Positions 12,903 through 46,685 of a stretch of DNA of 64,000 nt are shown here, one piece after another. Source of the DNA: a virus (lineage: Duplodnaviria; Heunggongvirae; Uroviricota; Caudoviricetes); the IMG/VR virus record IMGVR_UViG_3300018481_000018, positions 67,759 to 131,758 of that record. One strand, given 5' to 3'. The number at the start of each line of letters is the position of its first letter. Position 1 is the stretch's first letter. Position numbers and translations under genes: made by a program. The notes below the pieces were generated by a model. That model had not been told where the DNA came from, did not search any database, and worked only from the letters and a program-made list of their open reading frames with translations.

Positions 12903-13066
12903 CAGAGACCCTCCGGTCCAGTCAGTTCGAGTCGGTACGGCTCATCCGTGTCGTCGTCTACCAGGTCCAGGTAGGTGCGCCCGGTCCCTTTCGAGTCGTC
13001 GACGACCGAGAACCTGAACGGCACCCCGGTCTCTGCGATCTGGCGCAGCAGTTTCTCGAGGTCCAT
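12902..13066 (-). CDS. hypothetical small acidic protein (54 aa)
   Basis: ATG 13066..13064 (MDLEKLLRQ..) adjacent to upstream stop; ORF-track extension is junk. Confidence 0.4.
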   Translation of the reverse strand: MDLEKLLRQIAETGVPFRFSVVDDSKGTGRTYLDLVDDDTDEPYRLELTGPEGL

Positions 13067-13629
13067 CAGAGCGATCCGCTCATCAGGCGCTGGCCCAGGA
13101 CCTGCTCGGTCAGGGACATGGCGGTTGCTACCTCGTCGTGCTTGTCGCGGACGACCTCCCACGCCTTCTTGAGTTCCTCGAACTCGGTGTGAACGTCCTC
13201 GAAGGTGCGCTCGCCGGCCGTCTCGAGTAGGCGGCGGGCCTTCTTCGCCACGTCGTCGTAGTGCTGGAGTACAGCCTGCGCGTCGCCTTCATACGCCGGG
13301 TTGAGCCGAGCGTCGTGGAAGAGCCGGGTTAGGGCGTGCGGGTCTTGGCGTTGGCACGCCTCGTTCAGCACGTCGGAGTCGAGGCTGAACTTGAAGTCTT
13401 CCGTGACGGGTGAGTAGCCGCCGGTCTTCTTGGAGTACAGCTGGCGTTTGCCCAGCGCCTCGGCGTCATCGGCCCGAGGGAACTTCTGGATCTTCGCCTG
13501 ACCCTTGGTGCCGATGCCGCCCCATGCGGTGACGACGACGCCGTTCTCGGAGAGCAGGACGCAATAGAACTTGTTGTGACTGCCGATCCTGTTCTCCAGG
13601 TACCAGCCGGTGACGGGGATGTTGGTCAT
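13066..13629 (-). CDS. WGR domain-containing protein
   Basis: WYLENRIGSHNKFYCVLLSENGVVVTAWGGIGTKG matches WGR domain consensus (as in PARP N-terminal region). Confidence 0.65.
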   Translation of the reverse strand: MTNIPVTGWYLENRIGSHNKFYCVLLSENGVVVTAWGGIGTKGQAKIQKFPRADDAEALGKRQLYSKKTGGYSPVTEDFKFSLDSDVLNEACQRQDPHALTRLFHDARLNPAYEGDAQAVLQHYDDVAKKARRLLETAGERTFEDVHTEFEELKKAWEVVRDKHDEVATAMSLTEQVLGQRLMSGSL

Positions 13630-15982: not shown

Positions 15983-17743
15983 CTAGACCTTCTCGAAGAT
16001 CCGCTTGACCGATTCGGGCTTCAGGTCAGAGACGGGGATCACCACGTCGCTGATCTTGTTAAGCAGGCCCACCGGTCCGGTCTGGTAGGTCATGTCGTGA
16101 GCGCCTCCGATGTAGACCGAGTAGACCCGTACGCCGACGCGGTTGCGCTCGGCGTTGAACCTCTCGATCCACGTCTCGTCGAGGTGGGACTGGCCGTCGG
16201 TGATGAAGATGATGTCGGCCTTATCCTTCCCCGACTTGTCGAAGTCCTTGGTCGCCTTCTCCAGCGCCTCGGTGAGCACGCCGTCGAACTGCGTGCCCCC
16301 GTTGGCCTGAGTCCCGAGGAACGACATGACCTTCTCGAACGGCCCCTTGCCCTCGGGGAAGTCGAACCGCTCGCGGTCGTTGTTGTTGCCGAAGAACATC
16401 GCGTAGTAGTCACGATCCTCGTCGGCAGCGAACCGTTGCAGCGCCTCGGCCACGCCCATCGCCCACATGAAGGGCGAGCCCCCCATGGAGCCGGACTTGT
16501 CGATGGCGATCACGATGGGGCCCTTGCCGACCTCTTCGGTGCCGCGCATCTTGTAGACGAGCAGCTCCTTTTCCAGGTATCGGCGGTAGAACTCGTACGT
16601 CGTGTCCTTGTGCCCCAGGAGGGCGAACTGCGCCCGGAGCGTGCGACGAAGGTCGTCACCCGTCTCCACGTCGTACGCCTCGTGTGGCACGTCGTTGACC
16701 CTGGTGGCCTTGACGCCCAGTGCGAACCGCTTCATCTGTCCGATCACCTCGGACAGCGCCTTCATCTCCGGCGTGCGGAGTCGCTCGGCGAATGCCAGTC
16801 GTTCCTCGGGGTTCATGCTGTGCCACTCGCCGTCCTCCAGGCCGATGCCCTTGCGGAGGTTGTCGAGCTCGGATGCTTCGCGCTCGGCGGCGTCCAGCAT
16901 CTTGTTGGCCATGCGGTCGAGGTCGAGGTCGTCCAGCATGGCGTCGAACTCGGCCTCCCACTCCGCCTCGGCCTGGTTCATGGCGTCCTCGGAGTCGGGG
17001 TCGAACTCGTCGTCGCCCTCGCCAGTCAGATCCTCCTCAACCTCGGACCCATCGCCCTCGCCGGGGTCGAAGTCGTCGCCGGGAGATGCGCCGCCGGCAC
17101 CTTGGCTCCCACCCTCGCCCTGGCCTTCACCTGGGCTCGGCTGGCCCTCACCCTGGCCTTCACCGCCCTCGCCTTCGCCTTCACCTTGGCCTTCGCCTTG
17201 GCCCTTTCCGCCACCCTTCTTCTTCTTGCCGCCCGGCTGGGGCGGCGGGGGCGGCGGCGGGATGCGGCCGATGATCTCCCGGAGCGGCTCCGCCATGGCG
17301 TCGAGCGCCACGGTCGCCATCACCGGGTCGTTGACGGTGAACTCCTGGAGCTCCTTGAGCTTGGGGTTGTCCGCCACCTCCTCCAGGATCTTGCGCACCG
17401 GGTAGAGCTCGCGCTCGAGGTTGCGCTTGGCCTCCAGGCGAGGGTTCGCCTTGTAGAAGGACTGGAACAGACCCTCGACCAACTCCGGCGCGGGCTCGAA
17501 GCCTTCGCGGTGCCCGTTCTCACGGTGAGTGTCGCCGATCACCAGGTCTTCCACCAGGTCGTCAACGCTCTCGGTCTTGCGCGCCTCCTTCCACACTCGG
17601 TCGTCCCAGCGGTTGGTCTTGATGACCTTCCGGGACTTCTCCTTGGGCTGGGGCGGCGGGGTGAGGCCAGGACCCAGGAAGCCCTGGTTGCTGGCCATGC
17701 GGGACTTGAGCCTGTCGATGAAACTCACGGGCTGTGTGGTCAT
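15983..17743 (-). CDS. von Willebrand factor type A (vWA) domain protein with Gly/Glu low-complexity linker
   Basis: C-terminal IVIAIDKSGSM..GGTQF..IIFITDGQS: DxSxS metal-ion-dependent adhesion site plus conserved T/D; SD CAAGGAGGGGGA. Confidence 0.8.
   Translation of the reverse strand: MTTQPVSFIDRLKSRMASNQGFLGPGLTPPPQPKEKSRKVIKTNRWDDRVWKEARKTESVDDLVEDLVIGDTHRENGHREGFEPAPELVEGLFQSFYKANPRLEAKRNLERELYPVRKILEEVADNPKLKELQEFTVNDPVMATVALDAMAEPLREIIGRIPPPPPPPQPGGKKKKGGGKGQGEGQGEGEGEGGEGQGEGQPSPGEGQGEGGSQGAGGASPGDDFDPGEGDGSEVEEDLTGEGDDEFDPDSEDAMNQAEAEWEAEFDAMLDDLDLDRMANKMLDAAEREASELDNLRKGIGLEDGEWHSMNPEERLAFAERLRTPEMKALSEVIGQMKRFALGVKATRVNDVPHEAYDVETGDDLRRTLRAQFALLGHKDTTYEFYRRYLEKELLVYKMRGTEEVGKGPIVIAIDKSGSMGGSPFMWAMGVAEALQRFAADEDRDYYAMFFGNNNDRERFDFPEGKGPFEKVMSFLGTQANGGTQFDGVLTEALEKATKDFDKSGKDKADIIFITDGQSHLDETWIERFNAERNRVGVRVYSVYIGGAHDMTYQTGPVGLLNKISDVVIPVSDLKPESVKRIFEKV
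17100..17260 (-). repeat. GC-rich short tandem repeats encoding (GEGQ)n/Gly-Lys low-complexity tract inside the vWA gene
   Basis: ggccttcgccttcaccttggccttcgcc.. periodicity visible in sequence. Confidence 0.6.
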
Positions 17744-17769
17744 TCCCCCTCCTTGGGGTGGGTGTGAAG

Positions 17770-17810
17770 ATTTCGCGTGGGTGGTGCTGGGACTGAATGT
17801 TCGGATTGAG
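17770..17810 (-). promoter_or_regulatory. conserved promoter-like 40-mer (..CAATCCGAACATTCAGTCCCAGCACCACCCACGCGAAATC.. on - strand)
   Basis: Same element as 10692, 24368, 28300; immediately upstream of vWA gene start 17743. Confidence 0.55.
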
Positions 17811-18322: not shown

Positions 18323-19141
18323 TCAGGCCATCACGTGCTCGCCCTGGGTGGCAGGGCAGACCGCGTTCTCGGTCGAATCGTCGAGCACGACCCGGCCGTC
18401 GGCCAGTTGCTTGACGACCGAGACGCACGTGCTGCACATGCCGCGCTTGACCGGCGCGTTGCCAGCTTCGCGCTGGGCGTTGACGGCCTCATCCACGATC
18501 CGATCGCCCTGGGTGGCTCCGGGCTTGTAGCCCGCCTTGGTGGCCCCCTTGGGCTCCTGGTACATGAACAGGTAGCCGCCGCCGTTGTCCAGGACTCCGA
18601 CCCGACCGAGTCGCCCGGTCTTGAGCAGGAAGTCCAGCATGGCCAAGGCGGCCACGCTGTCGGCAGGGTCGACTTCGGCCAGCGCGTCCTCGAACGTTGC
18701 CGGTCCCGTGTTCATCAGTCCACCCAGCGCGCTGTTCACGGCGTTCTGGACGAGCGTCGAAATGTCGGGCTGCGGAGCGGCCGCCGCCGGCTGGGTGGTG
18801 AAGGCGGAGCCCGGAAGGGGCGCGATCCCCAGGTCGGAGCAGAGCCGCTCGTAGATGTCCGGCTTCTCGCCGATGTACTCGTTCAGGTACTCCTCGACCG
18901 TGCGGTCGGGGCCGACGTGCTGCTGGAACAGGTCGTAGTGCTCCGTGATGTGGTCGATCTGGGCGGCGGTGATGATTGCGCCCGGTCGCACGATGTCTTT
19001 CGTCATGGATTCCTCCTGGTGGTGTTCATGGCAAGTGGCGTACGGCCCGTATGGCCCCTGCGAGACGTGCGCGGCGGGGCGGGGAGGTTCGATCCCGTCC
19101 TCGATGCACCGCTCGCAGAGACCATCCAGGTATCCGTCCAT
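18323..19141 (-). CDS. hypothetical protein (272 aa; alt start 19006 with CCAGGAGGAA SD)
   Basis: ORF track; ATG 19141 shares a base with MoxR stop (TGATG). Confidence 0.6.
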   Translation of the reverse strand: MDGYLDGLCERCIEDGIEPPRPAAHVSQGPYGPYATCHEHHQEESMTKDIVRPGAIITAAQIDHITEHYDLFQQHVGPDRTVEEYLNEYIGEKPDIYERLCSDLGIAPLPGSAFTTQPAAAAPQPDISTLVQNAVNSALGGLMNTGPATFEDALAEVDPADSVAALAMLDFLLKTGRLGRVGVLDNGGGYLFMYQEPKGATKAGYKPGATQGDRIVDEAVNAQREAGNAPVKRGMCSTCVSVVKQLADGRVVLDDSTENAVCPATQGEHVMA

Positions 19142-20400
19142 CAGGCCGGCGAGTTGACGGCTGCGGCGTTGGCCAGGTTCTGCTGGGCCGTGGCGTCGAT
19201 GCCGAAGATGTCCTTGCCGATCTGGAGCTTGAACGAGTTCGCCTTGCCGATCACCTCGACCAGCCGAGTGGTCGCCGCACCAGCGGCCTGGGCCTTGGTG
19301 AGGTGCTCGTTGGCCTCAGCGAGCAGGCGGTCGATGTTCTTGACCTGCTCCACGCCGATCCGCTTCTTGCGGCTGTCGTCGACGTCGGGCTTGGACGCGG
19401 CGTTGATCTCGTCACGCACCTTGTCCAGGTCCTCGAGCAGGTCCAGTGCAGCCTTCTCGCCGGGGTTGGTGGCGGCCAGGATGACCGACCGGGCCTCGGG
19501 ACGCTGCTCCTGCACGGTCCACCACATGTTGGCGAGGACGTCCAGGTCGGCGACCTTCACCTCGTTGTGACCCCGGACCCAGGCGTTGGCCATGACGGCG
19601 GCCATGCCTTCGACCGAACGGCGGTCGCTGATGTTGATCTGGGCCTTGCCCTGGCGCAGCTCGTCGCGAATGTCGAAGAACATCGCCACCACCGGGTCGG
19701 ACACCGGCAGGGCCAGCGCCTCCTTGTGGGCCTGGTCGAGCTCGTCGAGCGTGACGATCGTCTTGCTCTGGCCGGGCACCATGGTGCTCACGCCGCGACC
19801 CACCAGGGCCATGCGAGCGATCGCGTCGCCCACCAGGTCGATCTGGTTCTGGCGGTCGGCCACGTAGTCGACGATGTGCCGGATGTGGATTCGGTCCCAC
19901 AGCGCGGCCTGGTCGGCATCGGCGTTCAGCTTGTTGGTGCCGGCGAACATCGAGCGCAGCTCGATCTCGTGCGGGATGCCGTTGTTGTGGAACACCCGCT
20001 CGTTCAGGATCGGCTGCATCGAGTGGAGCAGCGGACCGTTGGCGTTGAAGAACTCGTCGCAGAAGGCGTGAGTCGCCTCCGGCAGCATGCCGGTGGTGAC
20101 GCGGCGGGTCTTGCCGTCCTCGACCATGGCCTTGATGTCAGGCGGGCCGAAGACCTGCGAGGGGTCCGTGGTCTCGTCGAACGCGGACTCGAAGTACACC
20201 GAGCCCTCGATGTGGCTGCACATCCGACGGACGGCGTAGGACTTGCCGGTACCTGCCGGGCCGAGCATGAGCAGGTGCTCCTGAGCGACGGCGGCGACCC
20301 ACATGTCGTGGATCAGGGCCTCGCGCTCCTTGATGTCCTGGCTCATCTCGGCCACGATGTTGAGCACGCGGTCCTGAACGCTCGTGGTAGTGGTGGTCAT
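19141..20400 (-). CDS. MoxR-like AAA+ ATPase (AAA_5 type)
   Basis: Walker A LGPAGTGKS; MoxR-like spacing of later motifs; ATG 20400 preceded by GAGGAGGAGAC; ORF-track N-terminal Arg-rich 145 aa rejected. Confidence 0.8.
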   Translation of the reverse strand: MTTTTTSVQDRVLNIVAEMSQDIKEREALIHDMWVAAVAQEHLLMLGPAGTGKSYAVRRMCSHIEGSVYFESAFDETTDPSQVFGPPDIKAMVEDGKTRRVTTGMLPEATHAFCDEFFNANGPLLHSMQPILNERVFHNNGIPHEIELRSMFAGTNKLNADADQAALWDRIHIRHIVDYVADRQNQIDLVGDAIARMALVGRGVSTMVPGQSKTIVTLDELDQAHKEALALPVSDPVVAMFFDIRDELRQGKAQINISDRRSVEGMAAVMANAWVRGHNEVKVADLDVLANMWWTVQEQRPEARSVILAATNPGEKAALDLLEDLDKVRDEINAASKPDVDDSRKKRIGVEQVKNIDRLLAEANEHLTKAQAAGAATTRLVEVIGKANSFKLQIGKDIFGIDATAQQNLANAAAVNSPA

Positions 20401-22504: not shown

Positions 22505-22600
22505 ATCCATGGAAACTCCGAATCGACGGGACGATGGAGTTGTCACGCCACGCGAATACCGCCTCACGCATCACGCGTCACGCGGCGTGTGTGCGCCTGG
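22505..22600 (-). repeat. intergenic repeat element B: GGAAACTCCGAATCGACGGGACGATGG core plus 3 tandem TCACGCR heptads
   Basis: Homologous copies at 3965-4050 and 37185-37275; heptads overlap stop codon of gene 22571..22921. Confidence 0.7.
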
Positions 22601-23705: not shown

Positions 23706-24354
23706 CGCCCTTGATCGCCTTCCTCATCCGATCGTGGAACTCGTCCCAGATCGCCTTGTTGACCTCTCGGTCGGGCACGCCTTCGATGGCGTCGAGCTGC
23801 GCCCGTCGCCACGAGTTGACCGCTTCGATCCGCTTGTCCTTCTCATGCTGCTCGAGCGTCTTGGGGGCCCAGCGCTTGGACTCGTTCTCGATCTGGGCGA
23901 TCCGGTTCTGCTCGATCAGCTCAGCATGGATGGCCTCATCGAAGGGCCGCATGAGGTCGAACAGGGCCTGGTTCATGGGCGAGTAGGGCCAGTCCTCTTG
24001 ATCGCGGTCGACCAGCGATCCGTCGTCGAGGTGGTACCACCGACCCTTGCTGCTCTCGGGCTCGTCAGTCCGCCATTCCACCCGGCGGTCGTGCGCGTGG
24101 CACAGGGAGTCCAGGTTCTCCACCATCGGGATTTCGGGCGGAACGTCCACGTCGAGGTCCTCGACGGCGTGAGCGGTGCCGTAGGGCGCGCCAGTCTCGT
24201 AGTGGAACTCCTCGAACAGGTACAGGTGGCCGAACTTCTCGCGGATGCCGATGAAGCCCCGGCTCTCGGCCCGCCACGCGCCGACGACGAGGTTCCGGGA
24301 TCTGATGCGGTAGACGCGTCGATCCACAAGCTCGGGCATGGGGATGGATTCCAT
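23698..24354 (-). CDS. hypothetical protein (218 aa)
   Basis: ORF track; first gene after promoter-like motif at 24368-24408; SD TGAGGAGCC. Confidence 0.6.
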   Translation of the reverse strand: MESIPMPELVDRRVYRIRSRNLVVGAWRAESRGFIGIREKFGHLYLFEEFHYETGAPYGTAHAVEDLDVDVPPEIPMVENLDSLCHAHDRRVEWRTDEPESSKGRWYHLDDGSLVDRDQEDWPYSPMNQALFDLMRPFDEAIHAELIEQNRIAQIENESKRWAPKTLEQHEKDKRIEAVNSWRRAQLDAIEGVPDREVNKAIWDEFHDRMRKAIKGDA

Positions 24355-24367
24355 GAGGCTCCTCAGG

Positions 24368-24408
24368 ATTTCGCGTGGGTGGTGTTGAGGTCCAATGTTC
24401 GGATTGAG
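24368..24408 (-). promoter_or_regulatory. conserved promoter-like 40-mer (CAATCCGAACATTGGACCTCAACACCACCCACGCGAAATC on - strand)
   Basis: Third copy of the long motif; 14 nt upstream of ATG 24354. Confidence 0.55.
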
Positions 24409-24420
24409 GCTAGTCGAAGC

Positions 24421-24858
24421 TCACGCCTCACCTTGGCCGTCCTCTAGGAACTCGTCGGTCGGCTTGTCGCCCGTGAAGTCCGGGTCGATCCCGAACAGGT
24501 CGCTCGCCTTGGGGCGTGAGCGCTCGAGCATCGCGCCCATGACGAAGCCGTCGAAGTACGCCTGCACCGACTTGACGTAGGACTCGTGCGACGCGGGATC
24601 GCCCATCACCCGTATCCAGTCAGCGCCGGTCTCGATGTTGTGCAACGCCATGCCGGCCTGCATGGCGCAGTAGGCGATGGAGTCGAAGTCGCCGAGTGCT
24701 TCGTAGGCGGCTCGCCAGGAGGTCATGGCCTGGTTGATCGACGTGGCTTCCGTCTGGTCAGCCTTGAGCTTCAGGATGATCTCCGACAGCTTCCAGAAGT
24801 CGGGATGCTCCGGACGCTTGATGCCGGTCGGTGCGGTCAGGATGTCGTTGATGTCCAT
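24421..24858 (-). CDS. hypothetical protein (145 aa)
   Basis: ORF track. Confidence 0.55.
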   Translation of the reverse strand: MDINDILTAPTGIKRPEHPDFWKLSEIILKLKADQTEATSINQAMTSWRAAYEALGDFDSIAYCAMQAGMALHNIETGADWIRVMGDPASHESYVKSVQAYFDGFVMGAMLERSRPKASDLFGIDPDFTGDKPTDEFLEDGQGEA

Positions 24859-25262
24859 CAGGTTCCTCCCAGGATGGATTGAATGGCGGCCCGTTCTTCC
24901 TCAGGGTCAACTGGCGGCGGCTTGAGTGGAATCTCGCCGTCCTCCCAGAGGGTGGTGAGGAACTTCATCAGGTCGTACGCCTCCTCCCCTTCGGGAACGG
25001 GGCCGTTCGCGCGCTCCCATTCGGCGATCATGGCTGGGTCGGCTTTCGGAATGTCGAAGGCGCTGGCCCAGGGGACCTCGAAGCAGGTGGTGAACCATTC
25101 CTGCTGGATGTAGACGTCGGGATGATTGCCGATCGCGTCCGCCAGGCCCTTGTTCCACTCTTCGGCAGACGCCTGGGACTTGAAGGCTCCTGTCCAGAGC
25201 GGCTCGGCGGCCTCGACCATCGAGCCACCGCCACTGTGAAGTGCCACGACCCACATACTCAT
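24858..25262 (-). CDS. hypothetical protein (134 aa)
   Basis: ORF track. Confidence 0.55.
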   Translation of the reverse strand: MSMWVVALHSGGGSMVEAAEPLWTGAFKSQASAEEWNKGLADAIGNHPDVYIQQEWFTTCFEVPWASAFDIPKADPAMIAEWERANGPVPEGEEAYDLMKFLTTLWEDGEIPLKPPPVDPEEERAAIQSILGGT

Positions 25263-25480
25263 GGCATGACCTCCCTCAGGACGACACGCTTGCCCTTGAT
25301 GCAGATGCGCTCGCTTTCGAGCTCACCCACTTCACCATCCTTGAGTGCGCAGGCGGTGTTGAAGTCGTCGTGCTGATTCAGGCGCTCGTCCAAACGCTCT
25401 GGGAGCGGCCAGATCGCCCAGGTAACGAACCCGACCAGGCTCAGGTAGACGGCTCCGGCCTTCCAGTTTCGCTCCATCAC
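25259..25480 (-). CDS. hypothetical membrane-associated small protein (73 aa)
   Basis: ORF track; ATGA overlap. Confidence 0.5.
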   Translation of the reverse strand: MMERNWKAGAVYLSLVGFVTWAIWPLPERLDERLNQHDDFNTACALKDGEVGELESERICIKGKRVVLREVMP

Positions 25481-25767
25481 CGCGCCTCCTTGATGCTTTG
25501 GATCGCGGCTTCGATCTCATCGGGCTCGGGAGCCTCGAAGATGACCTCATATCGCTCTACCGGCAACTGCCAGGTGTGAGAGGAGGTCGCGTCGTCGAGG
25601 TGAATCCAGAGGTGCCCGTCGTTGGTGTGCTTGGGCTCGAAAGTCGGCCACTCCTCCTTGACGCGCGGGTCGGCCTCAGGATCGATGAGCGTGCCCACCT
25701 TCCCAATGAAGGAGTCCGAGCTTCCGTCGTCGATCACTATCACGCGGTCGCCGATCTTGACTGCCAT
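25477..25767 (-). CDS. hypothetical protein (96 aa)
   Basis: ORF track. Confidence 0.55.
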   Translation of the reverse strand: MAVKIGDRVIVIDDGSSDSFIGKVGTLIDPEADPRVKEEWPTFEPKHTNDGHLWIHLDDATSSHTWQLPVERYEVIFEAPEPDEIEAAIQSIKEAR

Positions 25768-25771
25768 GTCG

Positions 25772-26098
25772 TTACACCTCGTTGAGGATGTCGATGCGGG
25801 GGAGGTCGCACTCCTCCGCGAACTCGTCGAGGACCTCGGTGAGCGTCATGTTGTGCTGGCTTGGCAGCGTGAGGATGTGGTCGATGTTGTTCTGAACGTG
25901 CGTCCGAACCTCCTGGAGGAACTGCTCCATCCTGAACTTCTTGAGGTAGCCGGCGTCGGCCGGCAAGGTCGTCACTTCGTCGATCACCAGGTCGTCCGGC
26001 GTCTCGGTGATGTGAACCTGGAACATGACGCCCTCGAACGCACGTTCCTCACTCGTGGCGACATAGCCGTCGACTTGCAGTACATGCTTGGTGTTCAC
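25772..26098 (-). CDS. hypothetical protein (108 aa), coupled to ligase gene
   Basis: GTG 26098..26096 overlaps ligase stop (GTGA), preceded by GGAGG; ORF-track start 26149 would overlap ligase by 55 nt. Confidence 0.5.
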   Translation of the reverse strand: MNTKHVLQVDGYVATSEERAFEGVMFQVHITETPDDLVIDEVTTLPADAGYLKKFRMEQFLQEVRTHVQNNIDHILTLPSQHNMTLTEVLDEFAEECDLPRIDILNEV

Positions 26099-26904
26099 AG
26101 CGCCTCCAGGACCTTCTTGTTCACGTGCCGGAGTTGGCCGGTGGTGCATTCGTGCATCGCCTTGTCGTCCCGCTTGCGCAGGATGGTGGGCTGGTAGAGC
26201 CGCCCGCCGGCACCGGTGTAGAGGTAACGCACCTCGAGCACGTCACCCATGGCGATAGTCCCGCCCTTCTCCTTGCCAATCAGACTGGCGCGGCCCACTG
26301 AGACCACATCCCCGTCCTCGACCAGCCCCAGGTCCACGGAGTCCTTGCCGTCGGTTCGGACGCCCGTCACGATGCAGTCGGCGGTCGAGACGAACTTGAG
26401 CTTGAGCCACTCCTCGGTGCGGCCACCGGATCTGTAGGGCGAGTTCGCCTTCTTGAGCATGAGTCCCTCGAAGCCATCTTGCAGAGCGCGGCTGGCGAGT
26501 TTGATCTTCTCGTCGAGCGTCTTCGCCTGAGGTACCAACTTGAAGTCGTTGGGCACCGAGCCCAGGAAGGTCTCCAAGCCTGCGCGCCGCTGGAAGAGCG
26601 GCTTGTCGGCCCACAGCAGTGTGGGCGTCAGGGGCATGTCGAACACCCAGAAGACGTCTCCCACGAGCTCGCCGTCCAGCGCCCACTCCCCTGCCGGGAA
26701 GCGGAAGTCGATCACGCTGCGCGGCAACTTCTTGGAGTAGATCGAGCCGTTGCGGGTGATGGCGTTGCCGGGCATGTCCATGCCGGGCGACATCAGCAGG
26801 ATGCGGTTGCCGTCCAACTTCTGCTCCATGACCCAGGAGTCGTCCTTGATGAATGCTTCGAGCGAGGTCACCTCGGCCGACTTGGCCAGTTGGGGGTACA
26901 ACAT
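26095..26904 (-). CDS. ATP-dependent DNA ligase (minimal, ~269 aa)
   Basis: Adenylation motif I EQKLDGNR; further nucleotidyltransferase motifs (FDxP, EGLMLK, KLK); ATG 26904..26902 overlaps upstream stop; ORF-track N-terminal 118 aa extension is junk. Confidence 0.8.
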   Translation of the reverse strand: MLYPQLAKSAEVTSLEAFIKDDSWVMEQKLDGNRILLMSPGMDMPGNAITRNGSIYSKKLPRSVIDFRFPAGEWALDGELVGDVFWVFDMPLTPTLLWADKPLFQRRAGLETFLGSVPNDFKLVPQAKTLDEKIKLASRALQDGFEGLMLKKANSPYRSGGRTEEWLKLKFVSTADCIVTGVRTDGKDSVDLGLVEDGDVVSVGRASLIGKEKGGTIAMGDVLEVRYLYTGAGGRLYQPTILRKRDDKAMHECTTGQLRHVNKKVLEAL

Positions 26905-27122
26905 CACTTCACCTCCAAGGTGATGATCGGGTCGAACTCGAAGAATCCGACGATGAGGCCGAATCCGTAGATGAGGAAGAAGAAGACGGCCACCGTGAAC
27001 ACGCCAGCGAACAACGCAGGCAGCCAGCCGGGGCCGATCTCGCCCATCCCTGTCACCAGGACCATCCACCAACAGCCAGCTGCGATGAACGGGGCCAGGA
27101 TGAACAGCAGCGACAGCATCAC
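26904..27122 (-). CDS. small integral membrane protein (72 aa, 2-3 TM)
   Basis: ORF track; highly hydrophobic; ATGA overlaps both sides. Confidence 0.5.
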   Translation of the reverse strand: MMLSLLFILAPFIAAGCWWMVLVTGMGEIGPGWLPALFAGVFTVAVFFFLIYGFGLIVGFFEFDPIITLEVK

Positions 27123-27355
27123 TTGCTCCTGACGGGAAACTTCTCGATGTGCCAGAAGTCGCTGTAGTCACTCCGCTGGAGGTTCGCGCTCGCCCAGGAG
27201 GAGCCATCCTCCTGGAGGTACCAGCGCTTGACTTCTGGGCGTGACGCTTTGGCGACATCCGCGTCGACGAATACCTGCTCCACCTCGCTCCCCTCGTAGG
27301 GGAAGACGTGGGTGAGGACGAACACCTCCTCGACGGCTAGCTTCGGCCTAGGCAT
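27119..27355 (-). CDS. hypothetical protein (78 aa)
   Basis: ORF track; coupled between Ku and membrane protein. Confidence 0.5.
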   Translation of the reverse strand: MPRPKLAVEEVFVLTHVFPYEGSEVEQVFVDADVAKASRPEVKRWYLQEDGSSWASANLQRSDYSDFWHIEKFPVRSK

Positions 27356-28203
27356 CAGACGGCCTCACGCTCCGCCTTGGCGGCCTCCACGGACGCCGAG
27401 AGCATGGCCAGGAGGTCCGGTGCGGCAGCGGGGGCCGCAGCGACCACGCGCTCGCCCTCGGCGGGCTTGCCGAAGTCGCCGGCACTGGCCTTCTCGTCGG
27501 CGAACGTCTGGATCAGGGCGGTTCGCTCGTCGGTGAAGTCCAGTGGCTGGTCCTCCCACACGGTCTTGATGAGCGTGCCCATCATGGCGACCTCGGCGTC
27601 GACGACCTCGGTCTCCGGGAACTCGCGCTGCTCACGAACAGCGTCGGTGTGGTGCACGAGCCACAGTCGCCCGTCGGGCATCAGGACGCAGGGCTTCGGC
27701 TTGCCTCGCGTGGTGAGCTCGCAGACCGCCATCGCGTTCTGCTCGCGCATCGCCTTGAACAGCGTCGCCATGAGCTTGGTTGCCACCGGGTCCGGCTTGC
27801 CCTTGGCCTTGCCTGAGTCGCCCTTGCGCGGCTCGGTGTAGAGCAGGCCGGAGGGGACGAAGTGACCCTGGTGGAAGTTGTGCTGCGGCTCGAACTCCCG
27901 GACGACCAGGGTGTCGGGCTGGAGCGTGAACAGTTGCTCGATCTCGTGGTCCTCCACGTAGACCGGGCCGTACTCGGTGTCGATCTTCTTGATGACCTCT
28001 GCGCCGGGTTCGAGCAGCTCGCCCGTTTCCTTGTTGGTCAGGCCGCGACCCACGGGAGCCTCGCCGTCGTCGGTGACGACGAACTGCTTGCGCGTGATGC
28101 CGTGGTCGGACACGGTGCCGGTGTAGAGGGTGATCGGGATGTTGACGAGGTTGAACGAGAGGTTGACCTTGTTCAGCGAGCGACCGCTGGGCTGTGCCTT
28201 CAT
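27355..28203 (-). CDS. ku: Ku-like DNA end-binding protein (non-homologous end-joining)
   Basis: N-terminus LSFNLVNIPITLYTGT matches bacterial Ku core (cf. ISFGLVNIPVKLY); 282 aa; C-terminal Ala/Lys tail. Confidence 0.8.
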   Translation of the reverse strand: MKAQPSGRSLNKVNLSFNLVNIPITLYTGTVSDHGITRKQFVVTDDGEAPVGRGLTNKETGELLEPGAEVIKKIDTEYGPVYVEDHEIEQLFTLQPDTLVVREFEPQHNFHQGHFVPSGLLYTEPRKGDSGKAKGKPDPVATKLMATLFKAMREQNAMAVCELTTRGKPKPCVLMPDGRLWLVHHTDAVREQREFPETEVVDAEVAMMGTLIKTVWEDQPLDFTDERTALIQTFADEKASAGDFGKPAEGERVVAAAPAAAPDLLAMLSASVEAAKAEREAV

Positions 28204-28236
28204 GGTGGCCTCCTGGGGCCTAGGTTTGGACGAGTG

Positions 28237-28635
28237 TCAGTTTCTGCTGGCGAACCAGTTGTCGACACGCGCCGCAAGAGCGTATCGCGCATCGTCGAGC
28301 CGTTGGAGCAGATTTCGTCGTGGGCGTTCCGGGACTGAACGTTCGGAATGCTCCAGAGCGCAGAGCGCCGGGTAGAGGTCGGGCATGTCTCGCACGCACG
28401 TCAGGACCTCGATCACGAGGTCTCGGTCATGCGGGATCTTGTCGTCGTCCGTCGCGCCCGCTCCGACGCTTCGACCGTGGAAGAAGCCCCGGACGTAGCC
28501 CATGACGGCCGCATCCTTGACGAGCTGTTGCTCGTGCTCGGTCATGGCCTCCCACATCTTGCCGGCGGCGGTCAGGCGTTCGTTGTCGCGGGCTGCGAGG
28601 TACGCCTCGAAGCCCTCAGGCAGGCTGGTGGTCAT
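28237..28635 (-). CDS. hypothetical protein (132 aa); 3' end contains promoter-like 40-mer
   Basis: ATG 28635 overlaps upstream stop; C-terminal codons coincide with motif copy at 28300-28341. Confidence 0.5.
   Translation of the reverse strand: MTTSLPEGFEAYLAARDNERLTAAGKMWEAMTEHEQQLVKDAAVMGYVRGFFHGRSVGAGATDDDKIPHDRDLVIEVLTCVRDMPDLYPALCALEHSERSVPERPRRNLLQRLDDARYALAARVDNWFASRN
28300..28341 (-). promoter_or_regulatory. promoter-like 40-mer embedded in coding 3' end, 95-135 nt upstream of Ku start
   Basis: CATTCCGAACGTTCAGTCCCGGAACGCCCACGACGAAATC (- strand) matches 30/40 positions of the 17770 copy. Confidence 0.5.
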
Positions 28636-29114
28636 TCCTGCACCTGCTCCGAGAAGGAGGCGAAGATGGACTCCACGACCCCCTCGACGCTGCCCGGAGT
28701 GGCCAGGAGCGCGTTCCAGGCGATGTAGGACTGGCTCTCGGGCTCCTCGTTGGTGCCAGCGATATGCCTGGGCACGAGCGGGTACTCGTGGTGCCCCACG
28801 GACTCGACTGCCATGGTGGTGACGAAGCGATCTCCCTCGAAGAACACCAGCACGTCGCCCATCGACAGCGAGCGGTTCTTGCGCTGGCGGTAGGCGGTCA
28901 CCTGAGGCGCGTAGACGCCCAGGTCGGCCCTGATCGCTGTCAGGTGGTTGGCGCCGTCGACGTTGCACAGCGTCCACACCAGGTCGGCGGCCTGCTCCGG
29001 GTTATCGGCCACGATCTCGAAGTCGTGAGCGTGGAACAACTCGGAACCCTCAGAGTGGTAGCTGGCGAACATGCCCGGCCCCACAGCGTGCAGCACCTTG
29101 ACGGTGAGGTTCAT
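28632..29114 (-). CDS. hypothetical protein (160 aa)
   Basis: ATG 29114 (MNLTVKVLHAV..); ORF-track N-terminal extension junk. Confidence 0.5.
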   Translation of the reverse strand: MNLTVKVLHAVGPGMFASYHSEGSELFHAHDFEIVADNPEQAADLVWTLCNVDGANHLTAIRADLGVYAPQVTAYRQRKNRSLSMGDVLVFFEGDRFVTTMAVESVGHHEYPLVPRHIAGTNEEPESQSYIAWNALLATPGSVEGVVESIFASFSEQVQE

Positions 29115-31380: not shown

Positions 31381-31547
31381 CTTTCGATGTCGCGTTGTTC
31401 TTGGGCAGAGCCGGACTCGCCCGTGGAGTAGCAGTCGCCTTCACTTGTGAGCACCGTGAACACTGCCCACAGCACGAACACAACGACTGCGCCCAGCACC
31501 AGGATCAGGCAGCCGTTCGCCGCACCGGCTTCGTTCCGATGCTTCAC
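31368..31547 (-). CDS. small membrane protein (59 aa)
   Basis: GTG 31547 overlaps upstream stop (GTGA); TM segment LILVLGAVVVFVLWAVFTVL. Confidence 0.4.
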   Translation of the reverse strand: MKHRNEAGAANGCLILVLGAVVVFVLWAVFTVLTSEGDCYSTGESGSAQEQRDIERCLS

Positions 31548-32449
31548 TGGGGCGACCCGCCGTACAGGAACTGGTCGCGGTACGGGTTGCCGCACGACGG
31601 GGTGGTGACACACAGGTAGCGGAGGTATTCCTCGACTCCGCCGAACCCGTTGATCTCCTCCCGCTTCGCACGCGCCTCGGCCGCAGCCAGCGCCTCCTGC
31701 GCCTTGGCGGTTGCCACGTCGGCCTGCGCCTTCGCCTCAGCTGCGCGAGCCTGCGCGATTCCCGCCTGCTCGTCGGCGATGGCCTGGACGAGGTTGCCGT
31801 CCACCGGCTCCGGCTTCTGGATCAGGACCGTGAAGTCACGGAAGAAGTCACCACCTGCCTGCTCGTTCACCAAGCCCTCGATCGACTCGCGGACCTCGGT
31901 CTGCATCTCCAGGCGCACCGCGTCGTCGTTCCACACGTCGCGCCATTCGTACTCGGAGGCGACCCGGACCAGTGTGTTGTCCAGCGGTTTGCCGATGATG
32001 TCGTTGAGCATGTCCACCCAGCCGCTCGGGTAGTCGGCCGAAGTGGTCTCTCCGTCGTCGGTCACGTCGGCCTGGATCGCCGCGTCGTAGCGGGCCGCGA
32101 CCTCTTCGTGCATCTCTCGGAGCACCGTGCAGTCGGTGTCGAGGCGGAACGTCAGGCGGACCGGCACGTACAGCTCGGCGGAGTCGGACGACACCACCTT
32201 GAACCTGCCGCGCTCGGCGTTGCCCGACTCGGACGCTTCGTAGCTGATCTGGCGGGTCGGGTAGTAGTAGTAGCGGTCGCCGGGTGAGAAGTCCCTAGAG
32301 GACGGCTCGATGCAGTCCTTGAACTTCTTCGCCTGGGTGGCTCCGCCGGAGTAGTGGACGCCCTTCAGGTCGGCGGGCGCTGATGTGGTCGAGCACCCGG
32401 TCAACAGCAGCGCCAGGGCTGCCACGGTTCCTCCGATGATCTTCTTCAC
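31544..32449 (-). CDS. putative lipoprotein (301 aa)
   Basis: MKKIIGGTVAALALLLTGCS signal/lipobox; Ala/Glu-rich coiled-coil C-terminus. Confidence 0.6.
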   Translation of the reverse strand: MKKIIGGTVAALALLLTGCSTTSAPADLKGVHYSGGATQAKKFKDCIEPSSRDFSPGDRYYYYPTRQISYEASESGNAERGRFKVVSSDSAELYVPVRLTFRLDTDCTVLREMHEEVAARYDAAIQADVTDDGETTSADYPSGWVDMLNDIIGKPLDNTLVRVASEYEWRDVWNDDAVRLEMQTEVRESIEGLVNEQAGGDFFRDFTVLIQKPEPVDGNLVQAIADEQAGIAQARAAEAKAQADVATAKAQEALAAAEARAKREEINGFGGVEEYLRYLCVTTPSCGNPYRDQFLYGGSPQ

Positions 32450-37184: not shown

Positions 37185-37275
37185 TCGGACTACTCCGAAA
37201 TGTTGGGACGAAAGAGTTGTCACGCTACGTGTAGAACGCCTCACGCGTCACGCATCATGCGTCACGCGGTGTGCG
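37185..37275 (-). repeat. intergenic repeat element C: CTCCGAAATGTTGGGACGAAAGAGTTGTCACGC core plus 4 tandem TCACGCG/TCATGCG heptads
   Basis: Homologous to 3965-4050 and 22505-22600; heptads overlap stop of gene 37255..37623. Confidence 0.7.
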
Positions 37276-41638: not shown

Positions 41639-41907
41639 GACAACCTCGCTGCGAGACTTCTGAGCAGGCGCTCGATGGGCTCACGCTGCTGGTTGTTGTC
41701 GAGGGTGATCCGGTACTCGACCTTGGTCATCACCCGCTTGGTGAACCAGCCGCGTTGGCCGATCACCTTCTCGTTGAGCGCGGTGACGGAGACTGCACTG
41801 TCGGGGCATCCCTCCTGCACTCGATCGGCCATGTAGCGCAGCGACCGCATGAATCCGTCGACCTCATCGGCGTAGCCCCACACGCGGCCGGTGATCACCC
41901 CGGTCAC
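41635..41907 (-). CDS. hypothetical protein (90 aa)
   Basis: ORF track. Confidence 0.5.
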   Translation of the reverse strand: MTGVITGRVWGYADEVDGFMRSLRYMADRVQEGCPDSAVSVTALNEKVIGQRGWFTKRVMTKVEYRITLDNNQQREPIERLLRSLAARLS

Positions 41908-42947
41908 ACCACACCGACCCTGACCAGGTGCTCGAGCGCCTCGTCGTAGGTCTTGCCGGTCACCTTGGCGAACGCTTCGACCTTGGCAACCTTGGCCTTG
42001 GCGTCAGGCTCGACCACAGCCACCAGGCGCTCCTGCTCGGGGGCGTCCTTGAACAGCCGCTTGTGGAGCTTGCGCACCTCGGCGTAGGTGACGTCGGGAC
42101 TGAGCAGCGTCTCGCCCAGCGAGTGCAGCACCTTGTTGTACGGGCTGCGCTCGTCGCGTGACACGGCCTCGTCCAGGTTGACCTCGGTGAAGTCCAGGGC
42201 GGGCACCTTCTTGCCGTTGACGGCGAACCCTCCCATCCACTTCTTGTGCAGGCTCTGCTCGGCGCGGTCAGCCTTCAACTGCGCCTTGTCGCGGGCCTCA
42301 CGCTCGGCCTTCTCGCGGATAGCCTGCTCCCTGCGCTCGGCCAGCGCAAGAGCCTCCTCGGCCTCCATCAGGTCACGCGCCTTGCCGGCCGCCTCGGCCA
42401 ACTCGGCGTTGGTGAAGTTGCTCAGGTTGAGCACGGGCTCCTCCTTCCACTCGGGCTTCTCGACACGGGCGTCGTGAATCACGATGCCCTGCTTGCCGTT
42501 GGTGCGTACCAGGGCACACGCCTGGCACACGGCGGTCCTAGGCATGGCGGTCAGGATCGCCAGATCCACGCCCTCGGGTGCGATCTCCACCATGAGCGGG
42601 CTCTGGCAGTCCGCGCAGTTGGTCTCGATCCAGCCCTCGCTGCGCAGGTCGATCTCCACGCCGTTGATCACGGTCACGGGCATGTCGGCCAGGCTCGGTT
42701 CGGGCTCGGCCCTGACTCCGGTGTGGGTCTGCTCGGAGTGGCTGCACGCGCACAGCTTGAAGCCGTCCTGGACTGTGCCGGAGGGCAGGAAGCCTTCGCA
42801 CTCAGCCTTGCAGCGCACTGCGCCACACGCCTTGCCGAGAATGGCCTTGGGCTGGGGTGTCACGTCGACACCAGCCTTCAGGTTGGTCTTCACGCGCTCG
42901 AGCGCCTCGATCTGCTCAGGTGAGAGCAGGTTGTTGATGTCGGTCAT
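41904..42947 (-). CDS. hypothetical protein, Cys-rich N-half plus Ala/Glu/Arg coiled-coil (347 aa)
   Basis: ATG 42947 (MTDINNLLSPEQ..) preceded by GGAAGGATAGACGC and overlapping upstream stop. Confidence 0.6.
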   Translation of the reverse strand: MTDINNLLSPEQIEALERVKTNLKAGVDVTPQPKAILGKACGAVRCKAECEGFLPSGTVQDGFKLCACSHSEQTHTGVRAEPEPSLADMPVTVINGVEIDLRSEGWIETNCADCQSPLMVEIAPEGVDLAILTAMPRTAVCQACALVRTNGKQGIVIHDARVEKPEWKEEPVLNLSNFTNAELAEAAGKARDLMEAEEALALAERREQAIREKAEREARDKAQLKADRAEQSLHKKWMGGFAVNGKKVPALDFTEVNLDEAVSRDERSPYNKVLHSLGETLLSPDVTYAEVRKLHKRLFKDAPEQERLVAVVEPDAKAKVAKVEAFAKVTGKTYDEALEHLVRVGVV

Positions 42948-43138
42948 GCGTCTATCCTTCCGTGGTTCTCGACCCCGTGCTCGGAGTCGATCTTGTGGTG
43001 CTCGCGCACGATGGCGCGCTTGAGCAGGGGCCAGATCAGCCCCAGGAACAGCAGGTCGACGAGGATCATGAAGGTCACCTCGGCGGCCATGTGGGCAGGG
43101 TCGGCGACGATGTGCCACCACGCGGCCAGGAAGTCCAT
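42944..43138 (-). CDS. small membrane protein (64 aa)
   Basis: ORF track; TM FMILVDLLFLGLIWPLL. Confidence 0.45.
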   Translation of the reverse strand: MDFLAAWWHIVADPAHMAAEVTFMILVDLLFLGLIWPLLKRAIVREHHKIDSEHGVENHGRIDA

Positions 43139-43260
43139 CAGGGCAGCGCCTTCCCGATCACGTAGACCAGGAGGACCATCCCTCCCACGTAGGCCAGGGC
43201 GGCCACGGCGTAGAGCGTGGCCCCGGTCTTGGACAGCTGGCGCGCTCTGTGCTTGCTCAT
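43138..43260 (-). CDS. small membrane peptide (40 aa)
   Basis: ATG 43260 preceded by GGAGGCATCGG and overlapping upstream stop (ATGA); MSKHRARQLSKTGATLYAVAALAYVGGMVLLVYVIGKALP. Confidence 0.35.
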   Translation of the reverse strand: MSKHRARQLSKTGATLYAVAALAYVGGMVLLVYVIGKALP

Positions 43261-43442
43261 CCGATGCCTCCGAACTTCTCGTAGGGGCTGGGCTCGGCCG
43301 GCTCGGCGACGGCCGGCGGCTTGGCGCGCAGCGTGAAGGGTGGGCGCTCCACCTTGGCTCGGCGGTCGGCTCGCACCTGAGCGATCAGGCGGCGTTGGGT
43401 CCTGGCAGCCTTGACTGCCTTGGCGCGTTCGGTGGGTGTCAT
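43257..43442 (-). CDS. small basic protein (61 aa)
   Basis: ATG 43442 (MTPTERAKAVKAAR..) shares a base with upstream stop. Confidence 0.45.
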   Translation of the reverse strand: MTPTERAKAVKAARTQRRLIAQVRADRRAKVERPPFTLRAKPPAVAEPAEPSPYEKFGGIG

Positions 43443-44413
43443 CACATGCTCCTCGATGTGAAGGGGTTGGGGCCTGGGCGGTTGCTCAGGCTGGTGGTAG
43501 GCCGGTTGCCCGGTCGTGGTGTTGGGCGTGGTGCCCGTTTCGGCACGGGCAGGAAGGGGTTGCGGCCGGGCCTCGGGCCCATGCCTGCATCCGGTACGGG
43601 GATGGGCTCGGGACGTGGAGCCTTGGCGCGCTGGCCCTCCTGCAAGAGCAGCATCCGCAGCGTGTTGCCGGGTGCGCGGTCCTCGCGCTCGCCGTACTTG
43701 GCCACGATCCACTCGCGGCCGAGCATCACAGCCTCAGCCACGGGCCTGGCCACCCAGGACTGGTGGGTCTTGACGTACTCGCCCGCCAGGCGCAGCACCT
43801 CGACGACGTGCTTGGACTCGACGCACAGGTCCTCAGCCAGTTGCCACACCCGGACGTAGTTGCCCTCGCGCAGCGGCTCGGGGCGCACCGGGTTCGGGCC
43901 CTCGATCACCCACGCGTCACCCAGGGCGTCGAAGAACTCGCTGGTGGGCGTGGCGAGCCAGTGGCGGTCGAACTCGTCCTCGGGCCAGTCCTCCTGTTCG
44001 GGCTCCTCGTACTGCTCGCAGTCCAGCCGGAAGGGAGAGCAGTCGTGGTGGTCGGAGCAGGAGTACTCGGGCTCGCCGTTGAGCAACTCGCGCTCCCAGT
44101 CGGCCAGCGGCTCCCACTCGGGCTCGCTCTGGACCGGCTCGGACCAGCCCAGGAGTTCGCGCTCCCAGTCAGCCAGGGGCTCTTCGTAGCGCTCGTCGGG
44201 CTCGGGCTGACGCTTCCACCAGTCGATCTGCCCGGCGGCGCTCAGGCCGTCGCCCACCATGCGCTCGGGCTCGGGCTCGGCGAGGCTCTCGACGATGGCC
44301 TGGCGCTTGGTCAGGCCATCGGGCTTGCGCCCGCACCAGTAGCACCCCTGGCAGCCGTCGCTGCGGCCGGCACGGTGTGTGCCCTTGATGCGAGGGTGAT
44401 CGGTGTTGCTCAT
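43442..44413 (-). CDS. hypothetical protein with internal duplicated PLADWERELL segment (323 aa)
   Basis: ATG 44413 (MSNTDHPRIKG..) preceded by GAAGGGAGATGCACA. Confidence 0.6.
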   Translation of the reverse strand: MSNTDHPRIKGTHRAGRSDGCQGCYWCGRKPDGLTKRQAIVESLAEPEPERMVGDGLSAAGQIDWWKRQPEPDERYEEPLADWERELLGWSEPVQSEPEWEPLADWERELLNGEPEYSCSDHHDCSPFRLDCEQYEEPEQEDWPEDEFDRHWLATPTSEFFDALGDAWVIEGPNPVRPEPLREGNYVRVWQLAEDLCVESKHVVEVLRLAGEYVKTHQSWVARPVAEAVMLGREWIVAKYGEREDRAPGNTLRMLLLQEGQRAKAPRPEPIPVPDAGMGPRPGRNPFLPVPKRAPRPTPRPGNRPTTSLSNRPGPNPFTSRSM

Positions 44414-44548
44414 TGTGCATCTCCCTTCGGAGTGTCTGCTCGGGCTGAGCAGGCCGAGCCAACGCACAAGCGCCCGCACCCGGACAGGTGAGGGTTTGCC
44501 TCACCCACCCAGGGGTCACGCTTGTGCGCTGGACAGCCCGCTAGCGGG

Positions 44549-44944
44549 CTAGGAGAGGACCAGGACGTGGTGGACGTGCGCCCACGCCACCTGGGCCTCG
44601 TGGTACTTGGAGCCGTAGACCGGGCTCTCGAGCCTGCCGGTGTGCGGCTGGACGACGATGCCCTCCTCGGTCGGGAAGTGGCCGGTGCGCGCCTGGATGG
44701 AGCCGCGCGTCAGTCGCTGGTCGATCGTGGGCAGCGCCTTGGCCTCGACCAGGACTGTGGCCTCGTCCCCGATGAACACGGCGAAGTCACCCGTCTCGTC
44801 GTAGTAGTCCGGCACCCGGAACACCGTGATGTCGGGCTGGATGGCGCTGGCTGGCTTCCTGCGCGGCTTGCGCACTCGGGCCGGCGCGTCAGGGTCGACG
44901 ACGGCGAGCAGGTTCTCGGTCATCTGGCTCTGGGTGGTGGTCAT
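44549..44944 (-). CDS. hypothetical protein (131 aa)
   Basis: ORF track; SD CCCCAAGGAGGCAGCC. Confidence 0.6.
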   Translation of the reverse strand: MTTTQSQMTENLLAVVDPDAPARVRKPRRKPASAIQPDITVFRVPDYYDETGDFAVFIGDEATVLVEAKALPTIDQRLTRGSIQARTGHFPTEEGIVVQPHTGRLESPVYGSKYHEAQVAWAHVHHVLVLS

Positions 44945-44975
44945 GGCTGCCTCCTTGGGGCATCGGTGTTGCGTG

Positions 44976-44999
44976 TGACTTCGGACGGGCGTCTGAAGT
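44976..44999. promoter_or_regulatory. imperfect palindrome GACTTCGGACG-GG-CGTCTGAAGTC (operator-like)
   Basis: 32 nt upstream of ATG 44944; one mismatch between arms. Confidence 0.5.
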
Positions 45000-45429: not shown

Positions 45430-45430
45430 G

Positions 45431-46670: not shown

Positions 46671-46685
46671 GTCGGAAGGGGTGTG

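Follow-up and report, generated by a model that had tools for sequence, protein, structure and literature searches.

The window analysed here is a 64,000-nucleotide (nt) stretch of a Caudoviricetes record in IMG/VR (IMGVR_UViG_3300018481_000018, positions 67,759 to 131,758), and its minus strand carries a gene for Ku, which binds DNA ends (27355..28203; 282 amino acids, aa), followed, after a gap of 450 nt, by a gene for a minimal ATP-dependent DNA ligase (26095..26904; 269 aa). The gap holds two small overlapping genes on the same strand, which encode a hypothetical protein of 78 aa (27119..27355) and a likely membrane-spanning protein of 72 aa (26904..27122), and a second hypothetical protein, of 108 aa, is encoded directly after the ligase (25772..26098). 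All five open reading frames (ORFs) are present at the minus-strand coordinates given in an earlier reading of this DNA, hereafter the original prediction, which took them for a self-contained, phage-borne module of non-homologous end joining (NHEJ).

The identity of the Ku homologue is borne out by Pfam, PHROG, a PDB profile and the predicted fold. A Pfam scan places the Ku core domain at residues 16-177 (PF02735, E=1.8e-15; 57.8 bits, with the cutoff at 25), the protein matches phrog_4873 ‘Ku-like DNA end binding’ (E=9e-9), and the segment by which the protein had been recognised, LSFNLVNIPITLY, is present in the ORF. A profile built from 32 members of the Ku family matches M. tuberculosis Ku over its full length (9i91/8v53, E ~1e-11 to 3e-12); its residues 3-286 align with 9i91, and the alignment includes DLLAKLEASV. 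The minimal C-terminal helix of bacterial Ku is therefore kept after the beta-barrel core, reading PDLLAMLSASVEAAK in the window Ku and DLLAxLxASV as a family pattern, and the family stops a few residues past this helix, without a basic extended tail. The AlphaFold2 (AF2) model has a pLDDT (predicted local distance difference test) of 81.8, and a Foldseek search of the PDB with this model returned Ku70/80 or bacterial Ku in 50 of the 50 matches listed. Assignment to the Mu Gam family was rejected, as the Pfam scan at E<=0.1 gave PF02735 alone. With the NCBIfam model of bacterial Ku, TIGR02772, the protein scores 72.5 bits and thus stays below the cutoff of 150, though model positions 1-259 of 259 are covered. 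This score points to a divergent bacterial-type member rather than a standard Ku, and to no equivalog by NCBI’s TIGR02772 rule. Judged by these features, the phage encodes an apparently functional Ku.

The proposed minimal ATP-dependent ligase carrying KLDGN holds up equally well. Its adenylation domain matches PF01068 (E=1.2e-16, 61.4 bits against a cutoff of 26.2), the protein falls into phrog_114 (E=1.2e-25), and motif I reads KLDGNR at 26803-26820. The two Pfam profiles that had been suggested as a check, PF02735 and PF01068, thus place both proteins above their cutoffs. An alignment with 26 relatives of 55-81% identity reveals the catalytic motifs to be invariant, namely motif I (K29-L-D31-G32-x-R34), III (D77-G78-E79), IIIa (F88-D89), IV (E146-G147-L148..K151), V (K168-x-K170) and VI (R245-x-D247-K248). 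Motif VI of the OB domain (RxDK) is intact through R245, D247 and K248. The enzyme is likewise intact where truncation or loss of the KxxK of motif V had been envisaged, since motif V reads WLKLK and both K168 and K170 are present. The AF2 model (pLDDT 92.5) consists of two domains, a nucleotidyltransferase and an OB domain, and aligns with the catalytic cores of DNA ligases; Foldseek ranks the catalytic domain of human LigIV, the ligase domain of M. tuberculosis LigD and archaeal ligases highest. Pfam, NCBIfam and the AF2 model reveal no polymerase, phosphoesterase or extra DNA-binding domain. The phage therefore carries what is apparently a functional minimal ligase.

Three other assignments of this ligase were rejected. 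A LigD is unlike it, as the protein has neither a polymerase nor a phosphoesterase domain and scores 75.5 bits with TIGR02779, whose cutoff is 227.75, and the same (75.9 bits) with the general model of the dnl1 superfamily. An RNA ligase is contradicted by the OB domain with motif VI and by the fold matches, of which 50 of the 50 listed are DNA ligases. For Lig E, which is among the Foldseek matches at rank 39 (structures 6gdr and 4d05), a leader peptide is not evident in the translation, read by eye without a signal-peptide predictor. We note that the ligases of one sub-group of relatives (P0160, P0192, P0223) share a conserved N-terminal extension of ~85 aa (MN.NLPP.P.GA..YTHPQQGKT.Y.LP..., alignment columns 1-85), which is without an annotated domain.

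The genes of the string are tightly packed. Ku is preceded by an AGGAGG ribosome-binding site (28209..28214, minus strand; read from the sequence), which lies 5 nt before its start within a 33-nt intergenic gap. Ku and the 78-aa gene join at TGATG with an overlap of 1 nt; the 78-aa and 72-aa genes join at GTGA, with an overlap of 1 nt if the ATG three bases further is the start; the 72-aa gene and the ligase gene join at TGATG, again with an overlap of 1 nt, so that the ligase starts with ATG and not GTG; and the 108-aa gene overlaps the ligase stop codon at GTGA. A single overlapping minus-strand string is thus real with regard to its ORFs and tight overlaps, and its junctions are two TGATG and two GTGA. 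None of the 78-, 72- and 108-aa ORFs has a credible Pfam, PHROG or NCBIfam match, and the 13.7-bit match of the 108-aa protein to TIGR00537 (E=0.037, cutoff 87) is at chance level. The only homologue detected for the 78-aa protein lies in the identical contig L001. The 72-aa protein is hydrophobic throughout (maximum Kyte-Doolittle mean over 19 residues, 2.4) and only in the three closest genomes is it encoded two genes behind Ku; tblastn finds it in L019 (62% identity) and L020 (47%) and in no other relative. It can consequently not be called a conserved membrane partner. In several relatives small hydrophobic ORFs follow Ku, but they are non-homologous and such ORFs are common here, and we therefore rejected this part of the original prediction.

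A promoter-like element lies upstream of the string. The lineage-specific consensus of this element is CAATCCGAACATT-N17/18-CACGCGAAATC, and the copy ahead of Ku (28311..28352, minus strand; repeat family D14) reads AGCATTCCGAACGTT-N17-CACGACGAAATC. It is embedded in the 3′ end of the ORF upstream of Ku, with its own 3′ end 107 nt ahead of the Ku ATG. The original prediction had correctly seen a promoter-like 40-mer in this upstream gene, but placed it at 28300-28341, and the copy is degenerate: in an alignment of the three window copies it is 71% identical to those at 17769-17810 and 24367-24408, both of which are intergenic and stand directly before a gene on the minus strand. With at most three mismatches, the 19-nt core of the element gave 2 matches against 0 expected. 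A scan of the relatives gave 8 more matches at 7 distinct sites, one site being counted twice through the overlap of L022 and L023 on a single contig, and most lie 10-30 nt before a start codon (L007 2877; L019 9210; L020 8368 and 13782; L022 16446; L023 12326 and 19937). The element stands directly before Ku in L007 and directly before the ligase in L020, and a looser search finds a copy in L019 whose position ahead of Ku matches that in the window.

The element is unlike the sigma-70 consensus, and neither a sigma-70-like promoter nor an intrinsic terminator was found within 24300-29000. The window’s own sigma factor (59468-60523, plus strand; phrog_351) might read it. Its CCGAACA core recalls the TGTTCGGNNNCCGAACA repeat of cluster O mycobacteriophages (PMC4351075), which may be coincidence. 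The predicted transcription unit runs from 28352 through Ku, the two small genes, the ligase and five further small genes to the element at 24408, and ends with four small genes of 96, 73, 134 and 145 aa (24421..25767, minus strand) before the element copy 24367-24408. Ku and ligase are probably co-transcribed in this genome.

Comparison with related genomes reveals how stable this arrangement is. The Ku and ligase family lists contain 16 pairs with identical ‘longest contig’ sizes, and the presence of both genes on the same record was verified directly in five genomes, which points to Ku and ligase as core genes of the lineage. Of 11 Ku contigs longer than 90 kb, at least 10 also carry the ligase, and the two genes still co-occur where Ku identity has fallen to 38% (L017). 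For three large contigs with the ligase (135,373, 146,520 and 118,068 bp), the family list shows no Ku. On a further contig, of 142,192 bp, Ku is 47% but the ligase 66% identical to the window proteins (P0090/P0136 versus P0092/P0227), a discordance that hints at exchange of the ligase gene between sub-lineages.

The distance between the two genes varies with the relatedness of the genomes. Two genes and 0.45 kb separate Ku and ligase in the window and L001 (Ku identity 100%), three genes and 0.84 kb in L019 (89%), and eight genes and 3.0 kb in L020 (83%), where the ligase has its own promoter-like element. The gap grows to 11.4 kb in contig_109929 (69%), 17.9 kb in k141_6182525 (53%) and 6.4 kb in L017 (38%), and no ligase lies within 8-10 kb of downstream sequence in L002, L003, L006, L021, L025 and L026. 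Ku identities of at least 83% thus go with a ligase within 0.5-3 kb, and identities of at most 71% with a ligase 6-18 kb downstream or none within 8-10 kb. The proposed coupled operon, read as a conserved module, fails on this comparison, since the gap is 3 kb or less only in the window/L001, L019 and L020; an ancestral Ku-ligase ‘operon’ was rejected on the same grounds. The distribution instead indicates that adjacency is a recent, derived state of the window’s sub-clade only.

In the relatives, Ku is commonly followed by a few small genes, a gene for a ~405-aa protein, a bpMoxR ATPase, a VWA protein, a WGR-domain protein, in some cases a DNA methylase, and the ligase; the order differs in L026, where the VWA gene is ahead of the MoxR gene. 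The window retains this backbone on the minus strand between 13066 and 20400, with the bpMoxR AAA ATPase at 19141-20400, the VWA protein at 15983-17743 and the WGR-domain protein at 13066-13629, and each of the three is conserved downstream of Ku in all relatives examined (the backbone is seen in L002, L003 and L021-L026). In relatives with the older order, the ligase lies 1.2-2.4 kb past the WGR gene. There, in L023, a homologue of the 108-aa protein (42% identity, E=2.5e-21) is encoded two genes after the ligase at the ancestral site, and so the 108-aa gene appears to have moved together with the ligase. The gene for a ~218-aa protein also moved with the ligase in the window’s sub-clade. The move of the ligase next to Ku hints at selection for co-expression.

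The genes are carried by a genome that resembles a phage in several respects, as the original prediction had assumed. Proteins of the window match the phage families phrog_19600 (1e-66), phrog_24053 (9e-47) and phrog_9210 (3e-33) as well as phrog_351 (the sigma factor), phrog_3301 (pyrophosphatase) and phrog_200, and a 211-aa protein shares ~45% identity with counterparts in Gordonia, Microbacterium and Mycobacterium phages. An alignment-based scan of IMG/VR found one relative, a viral genome of 147,685 bp, where scans with single proteins found none, and a search of 185,579 species-representative genomes of bacteria and archaea (GTDB) gave no relative. Cultured relatives are equally absent from 50,697 phage records, in which neither a megablast of 25700-28400 nor tblastn of Ku at E<=1e-5 nor tblastn of the distant L017 Ku gave a match. 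The Ku and ligase families are metagenome-only (108 and 223 clusters), and their lists describe uncultured, phage-like genomes with longest contigs of 134-148 kb. The G+C content of the window is 62-69%. Given the phage families, the IMG/VR relative and the lack of a GTDB relative, the window is most likely part of the ~144-kb genome of an uncultured soil phage, of a large-actinophage lineage with an actinobacterial host. No virion gene was seen in the window or the fetched flanks, which cover the non-structural region only; since ~30 other window proteins have no Pfam match, none could be shown there.

The ends of the assemblies vary. The relatives’ contigs of 113-148 kb break at variable distances from Ku, which lies 50 nt from the contig start in L026, 1.2 kb in L021, 10.5 kb in L025, 22 kb in L003, 29 kb in L022, 53 kb in L004 and 97 kb in L010, and one phage is represented by two assemblies (144,524 and 147,685 bp) whose sequences are permuted with respect to one another. 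Because break points range from 50 nt to 97 kb upstream of Ku, the assemblies suggest circular, permuted or terminally redundant molecules rather than fixed ends.

We consider self-contained end joining by Ku and the phage ligase, without host LigD, to be the reading with the best support, at about an even bet (a probability of roughly 0.5). In the proposed mechanism, a local block move would have put the ligase and the 108-aa gene two small genes downstream of Ku, and a single promoter-like element would drive both Ku and ligase within a translationally coupled string. Ku would be made from this unit, which looks early by its place in the long small-gene array, and would form a ring on linear phage DNA ends, either of the entering genome or at breaks left by host nucleases, and would shield and bridge them. 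The phage’s own ligase would then seal the Ku-held ends independently of host LigD, the possible targets being the genome ends at entry or host-nuclease breaks in phage DNA. This division of labour finds an analogy in M. tuberculosis, where the isolated LigD ligase domain alone seals only nicks, the Ku core binds this domain directly, a Ku with the minimal but without the extended C-terminus stimulates the isolated domain, and the extended basic tail of Ku holds LigD via its polymerase domain (PMC9638933). Because the window’s Ku family ends after the minimal C-terminal helix, without the basic tail, the phage protein would fit a bare ligase-domain partner better than host LigD.

Several observations weigh against this mechanism. 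Both Ku and ligase stay under the NCBIfam equivalog cutoffs, and a polymerase or phosphoesterase partner did not come to light. At 9 of the 12 distinct Ku loci (with at least 8 kb of downstream sequence), the ligase is over 6 kb off or absent from that sequence, and, as the adjacency of the two genes is not ancestral, gene order appears to support their coupling little. Tight gene overlaps are general along the whole 50-kb minus-strand array and not specific to the pair, and contig break points differ among the relatives, contrary to fixed ends that stop assembly. In addition, many large phages that have no Ku carry an ATP-dependent ligase for their replication (PMC7824862), and Mu Gam, a phage relative of Ku, shields linear Mu DNA from nucleases (PMC1378119) and uses the host ligase for end joining (PMC8136500). 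A phage Ku therefore need not partner a phage ligase.

In the strongest rival explanation, the two proteins have independent functions: Ku caps ends in the manner of Gam against exonucleases such as AdnAB and RecBCD, the ligase seals nicks in replication or recombination, and their proximity is a by-product of frequent local gene shuffling. Apart from the wide distribution of ATP-dependent ligases in large-phage replication and the protection of linear Mu DNA from nuclease digestion by Gam, this rival draws on the position of the ligase 6-18 kb from Ku in most relatives, after the WGR gene (and a DNA methylase gene in L023), on the gene content between Ku and ligase, which differs in each of the three closest genomes, and on the separate promoter-like element of the ligase in L020. 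Yet the window Ku is a full-length bacterial-type protein with the ligation-stimulating minimal C-terminus and had no Mu Gam match in Pfam at E<=0.1, both genes are kept together across the whole lineage, and neither arrangement showed replication genes beside the ligase. We regard independent functions as somewhat doubtful. Less probable again, though mycobacteriophages offer an experimental precedent (Pitcher 2006, cited in PMC3706429, PMC4351075 and PMC12848934), is an arrangement of the Omega/Corndog type, in which the phage Ku recruits host LigD to short cohesive ends and the phage ligase is uninvolved. The window Ku does keep the conserved minimal C-terminal motif of bacterial Ku, and the hosts are likely actinobacteria. 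Many actinobacteria carry LigD. The family, however, lacks the basic extended C-terminus that is critical for the interaction with LigD in M. tuberculosis, the window Ku is only ~25% identical to the cluster J Ku (tblastn E ~1), and no end is shared by the assemblies, whereas one would be expected had fixed short-overhang termini stopped assembly. We consider recruitment of host LigD unlikely.

A non-phage origin, with the window belonging to a plasmid or an integrated actinobacterial element that carries an ordinary cellular NHEJ pair, appears highly improbable. It could account for the lack of virion genes in the 64-kb window and the fetched flanks, and one relative (P0077) is filed under a Nonomuraea metagenome-assembled genome at NCBI. 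Against this stand the many matches to phage-only PHROG families, the relative held in IMG/VR, the 0 matches in 185,579 species-representative genomes, the discrete 134-148 kb range of the contigs, and the long arrays of small overlapping genes of unknown function together with a tRNA cluster. A more ambitious extension of the Ku-ligase pairing is that Ku, bpMoxR, VWA, WGR and ligase form one viral multi-part machine that senses and joins DNA ends and is being compacted into a Ku-ligase operon here, which we regard as speculative and improbable. WGR domains are fused to ATP-dependent ligases in bacteria (PMC7470946). Such a machine may, by analogy, mirror the eukaryotic set for DNA breaks, with a vWA domain and Ku core in Ku70/80, WGR in PARPs, and ligase IV. 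In eukaryotes, vWA and WGR domains accompany Ku and break sensing.

Other features of the window lie further from the pair. A Band_7/SPFH-family protein (31544-32449, minus strand; phrog_200 only in the window) is encoded 3.3 kb upstream of Ku, and a Band_7/SPFH protein (PF01145) is kept 2-9 kb upstream of Ku in L002, L003, L004, L019 and L020. A second conserved upstream element of 70 nt occurs three times on the minus strand (3986-4055, 22515-22584 and 37192-37261) and carries about four GCGTGA-like repeats followed by TCGTCCC..TTCGGAG. Its first two copies lie just before the gene starts at 3946 and 22491 and the third just upstream of the candidate starts 37244/37141; such an element could serve as an operator or represent another class of promoter. 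The region 41900-47100 (minus strand) has a higher G+C content (0.68-0.69) and repeated coding motifs of 46-58 nt (families D1 and D2), which points to a few paralogous genes forming a small family. A cluster of three tRNA genes (Arg-CCT, Trp-CCA and Ser-CGA; 51954-52233, plus strand) lies where the minus-strand array switches to plus-strand genes, and Rfam found nothing else in the window.

The phage Ku proteins studied so far, those of Omega, Corndog and Mu Gam, all borrow a host ligase. A lineage with Ku and its own ligase as core genes would, for bacteria, be the first candidate system in which a virus joins ends autonomously, and it is relevant to the survival of large linear phage genomes at entry and in the face of host exonucleases and of cuts by restriction or CRISPR. 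Should Ku and ligase suffice by themselves, the two genes (282 + 269 aa) would make up a very compact end-joining kit with a possible use in the genome engineering of bacteria that lack NHEJ. The M. tuberculosis LigD alone has ~760 aa.

Among known systems, the closest comparison is with the mycobacteriophages Omega (gp206, cluster J) and Corndog (gp87, cluster O), which likewise encode a full-length bacterial-type Ku within the long small-gene array of a large actinophage. Both phages use host LigD for circularisation at cos sites (PMC12848934, PMC3706429), and the Corndog genome has a 4-base 3′ extension (PMC4351075), that is, a 4-base cohesive end. The literature thus agrees with the original prediction that described mycobacteriophage Ku genes rely on host LigD, and no DNA ligase has been reported in clusters J and O: the cluster O paper does not mention one, the cluster J paper mentions an RNA ligase only, and no homologue of the window ligase was detected in the Ku phages of either cluster. 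The two Ku types also differ, as the cluster J protein, the sole match to the window Ku at E<=10, carries an Lsr2-like C-terminal tail, whereas the window family ends after the minimal C-terminus. A mycobacterial Ku query of the phage collection found 88 records, 87 of them mycobacteriophages and one an unassigned fecal ‘Bacteriophage sp.’; the mycobacteriophage rows listed are members of clusters J and O with one partial match in phage Nebkiss. Conversely, a search with the window ligase at E up to 1 found 137 phage records, and as Mycobacterium is outside the ten commonest names, at most four of these can be Mycobacterium records.

Mu Gam together with the E. coli ligase offers a second parallel, in that Gam, too, is a Ku-superfamily protein from a phage, binds the ends of DNA and is able to promote their joining. 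It is far shorter, however, and has a separate Pfam family. Gam differs further in its use of a host ligase (PMC8136500), where the window phage has its own ATP-dependent enzyme. Bacterial NHEJ by Ku and LigD shares with the phage pair the Ku core, the minimal C-terminus and the ATP-dependent ligase core, the M. tuberculosis LigD domain being a structural neighbour; the phage ligase, however, is without polymerase and phosphoesterase domains, and the phage genes are viral and not adjacent in most relatives. A Ku paired with a ligase-only protein is a known bacterial arrangement in Streptomyces. With regard to its architecture, the window ligase resembles the minimal ligases (Lig C, Lig E, Chlorella virus and T7-type), which have the same nucleotidyltransferase and OB domains without an extra DNA-binding domain, and at 269 aa it stands at the small end of the two-domain class (PMC7470946, PMC8455567).

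Cultured phages supply only distant relatives of this enzyme. The window ligase is at most 34% identical to any cultured-phage ligase, the best being those of the Microbacterium phages Rasputia and Hendrix and the Micrococcus phage Kurnik, and the ligase of SPbeta-group Bacillus prophages (yoqV/LigB-like), which is of the NHEJ-ligase type, is ~26% identical over the nucleotidyltransferase domain. Ku searches of the phage records detected no Ku in Rasputia, Hendrix, Kurnik or the SPbeta group, and the SPbeta-group phages thus represent the reverse case, a ligase without a detected Ku. In the open-access literature searched, phage Ku and Gam proteins are described only as working with host ligases, and no description of a phage carrying both Ku and a ligase was found, an absence that is no proof. 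In sum, neither the components nor the chemistry are unfamiliar; the novelty lies in a viral, lineage-wide pairing of Ku with a ligase.

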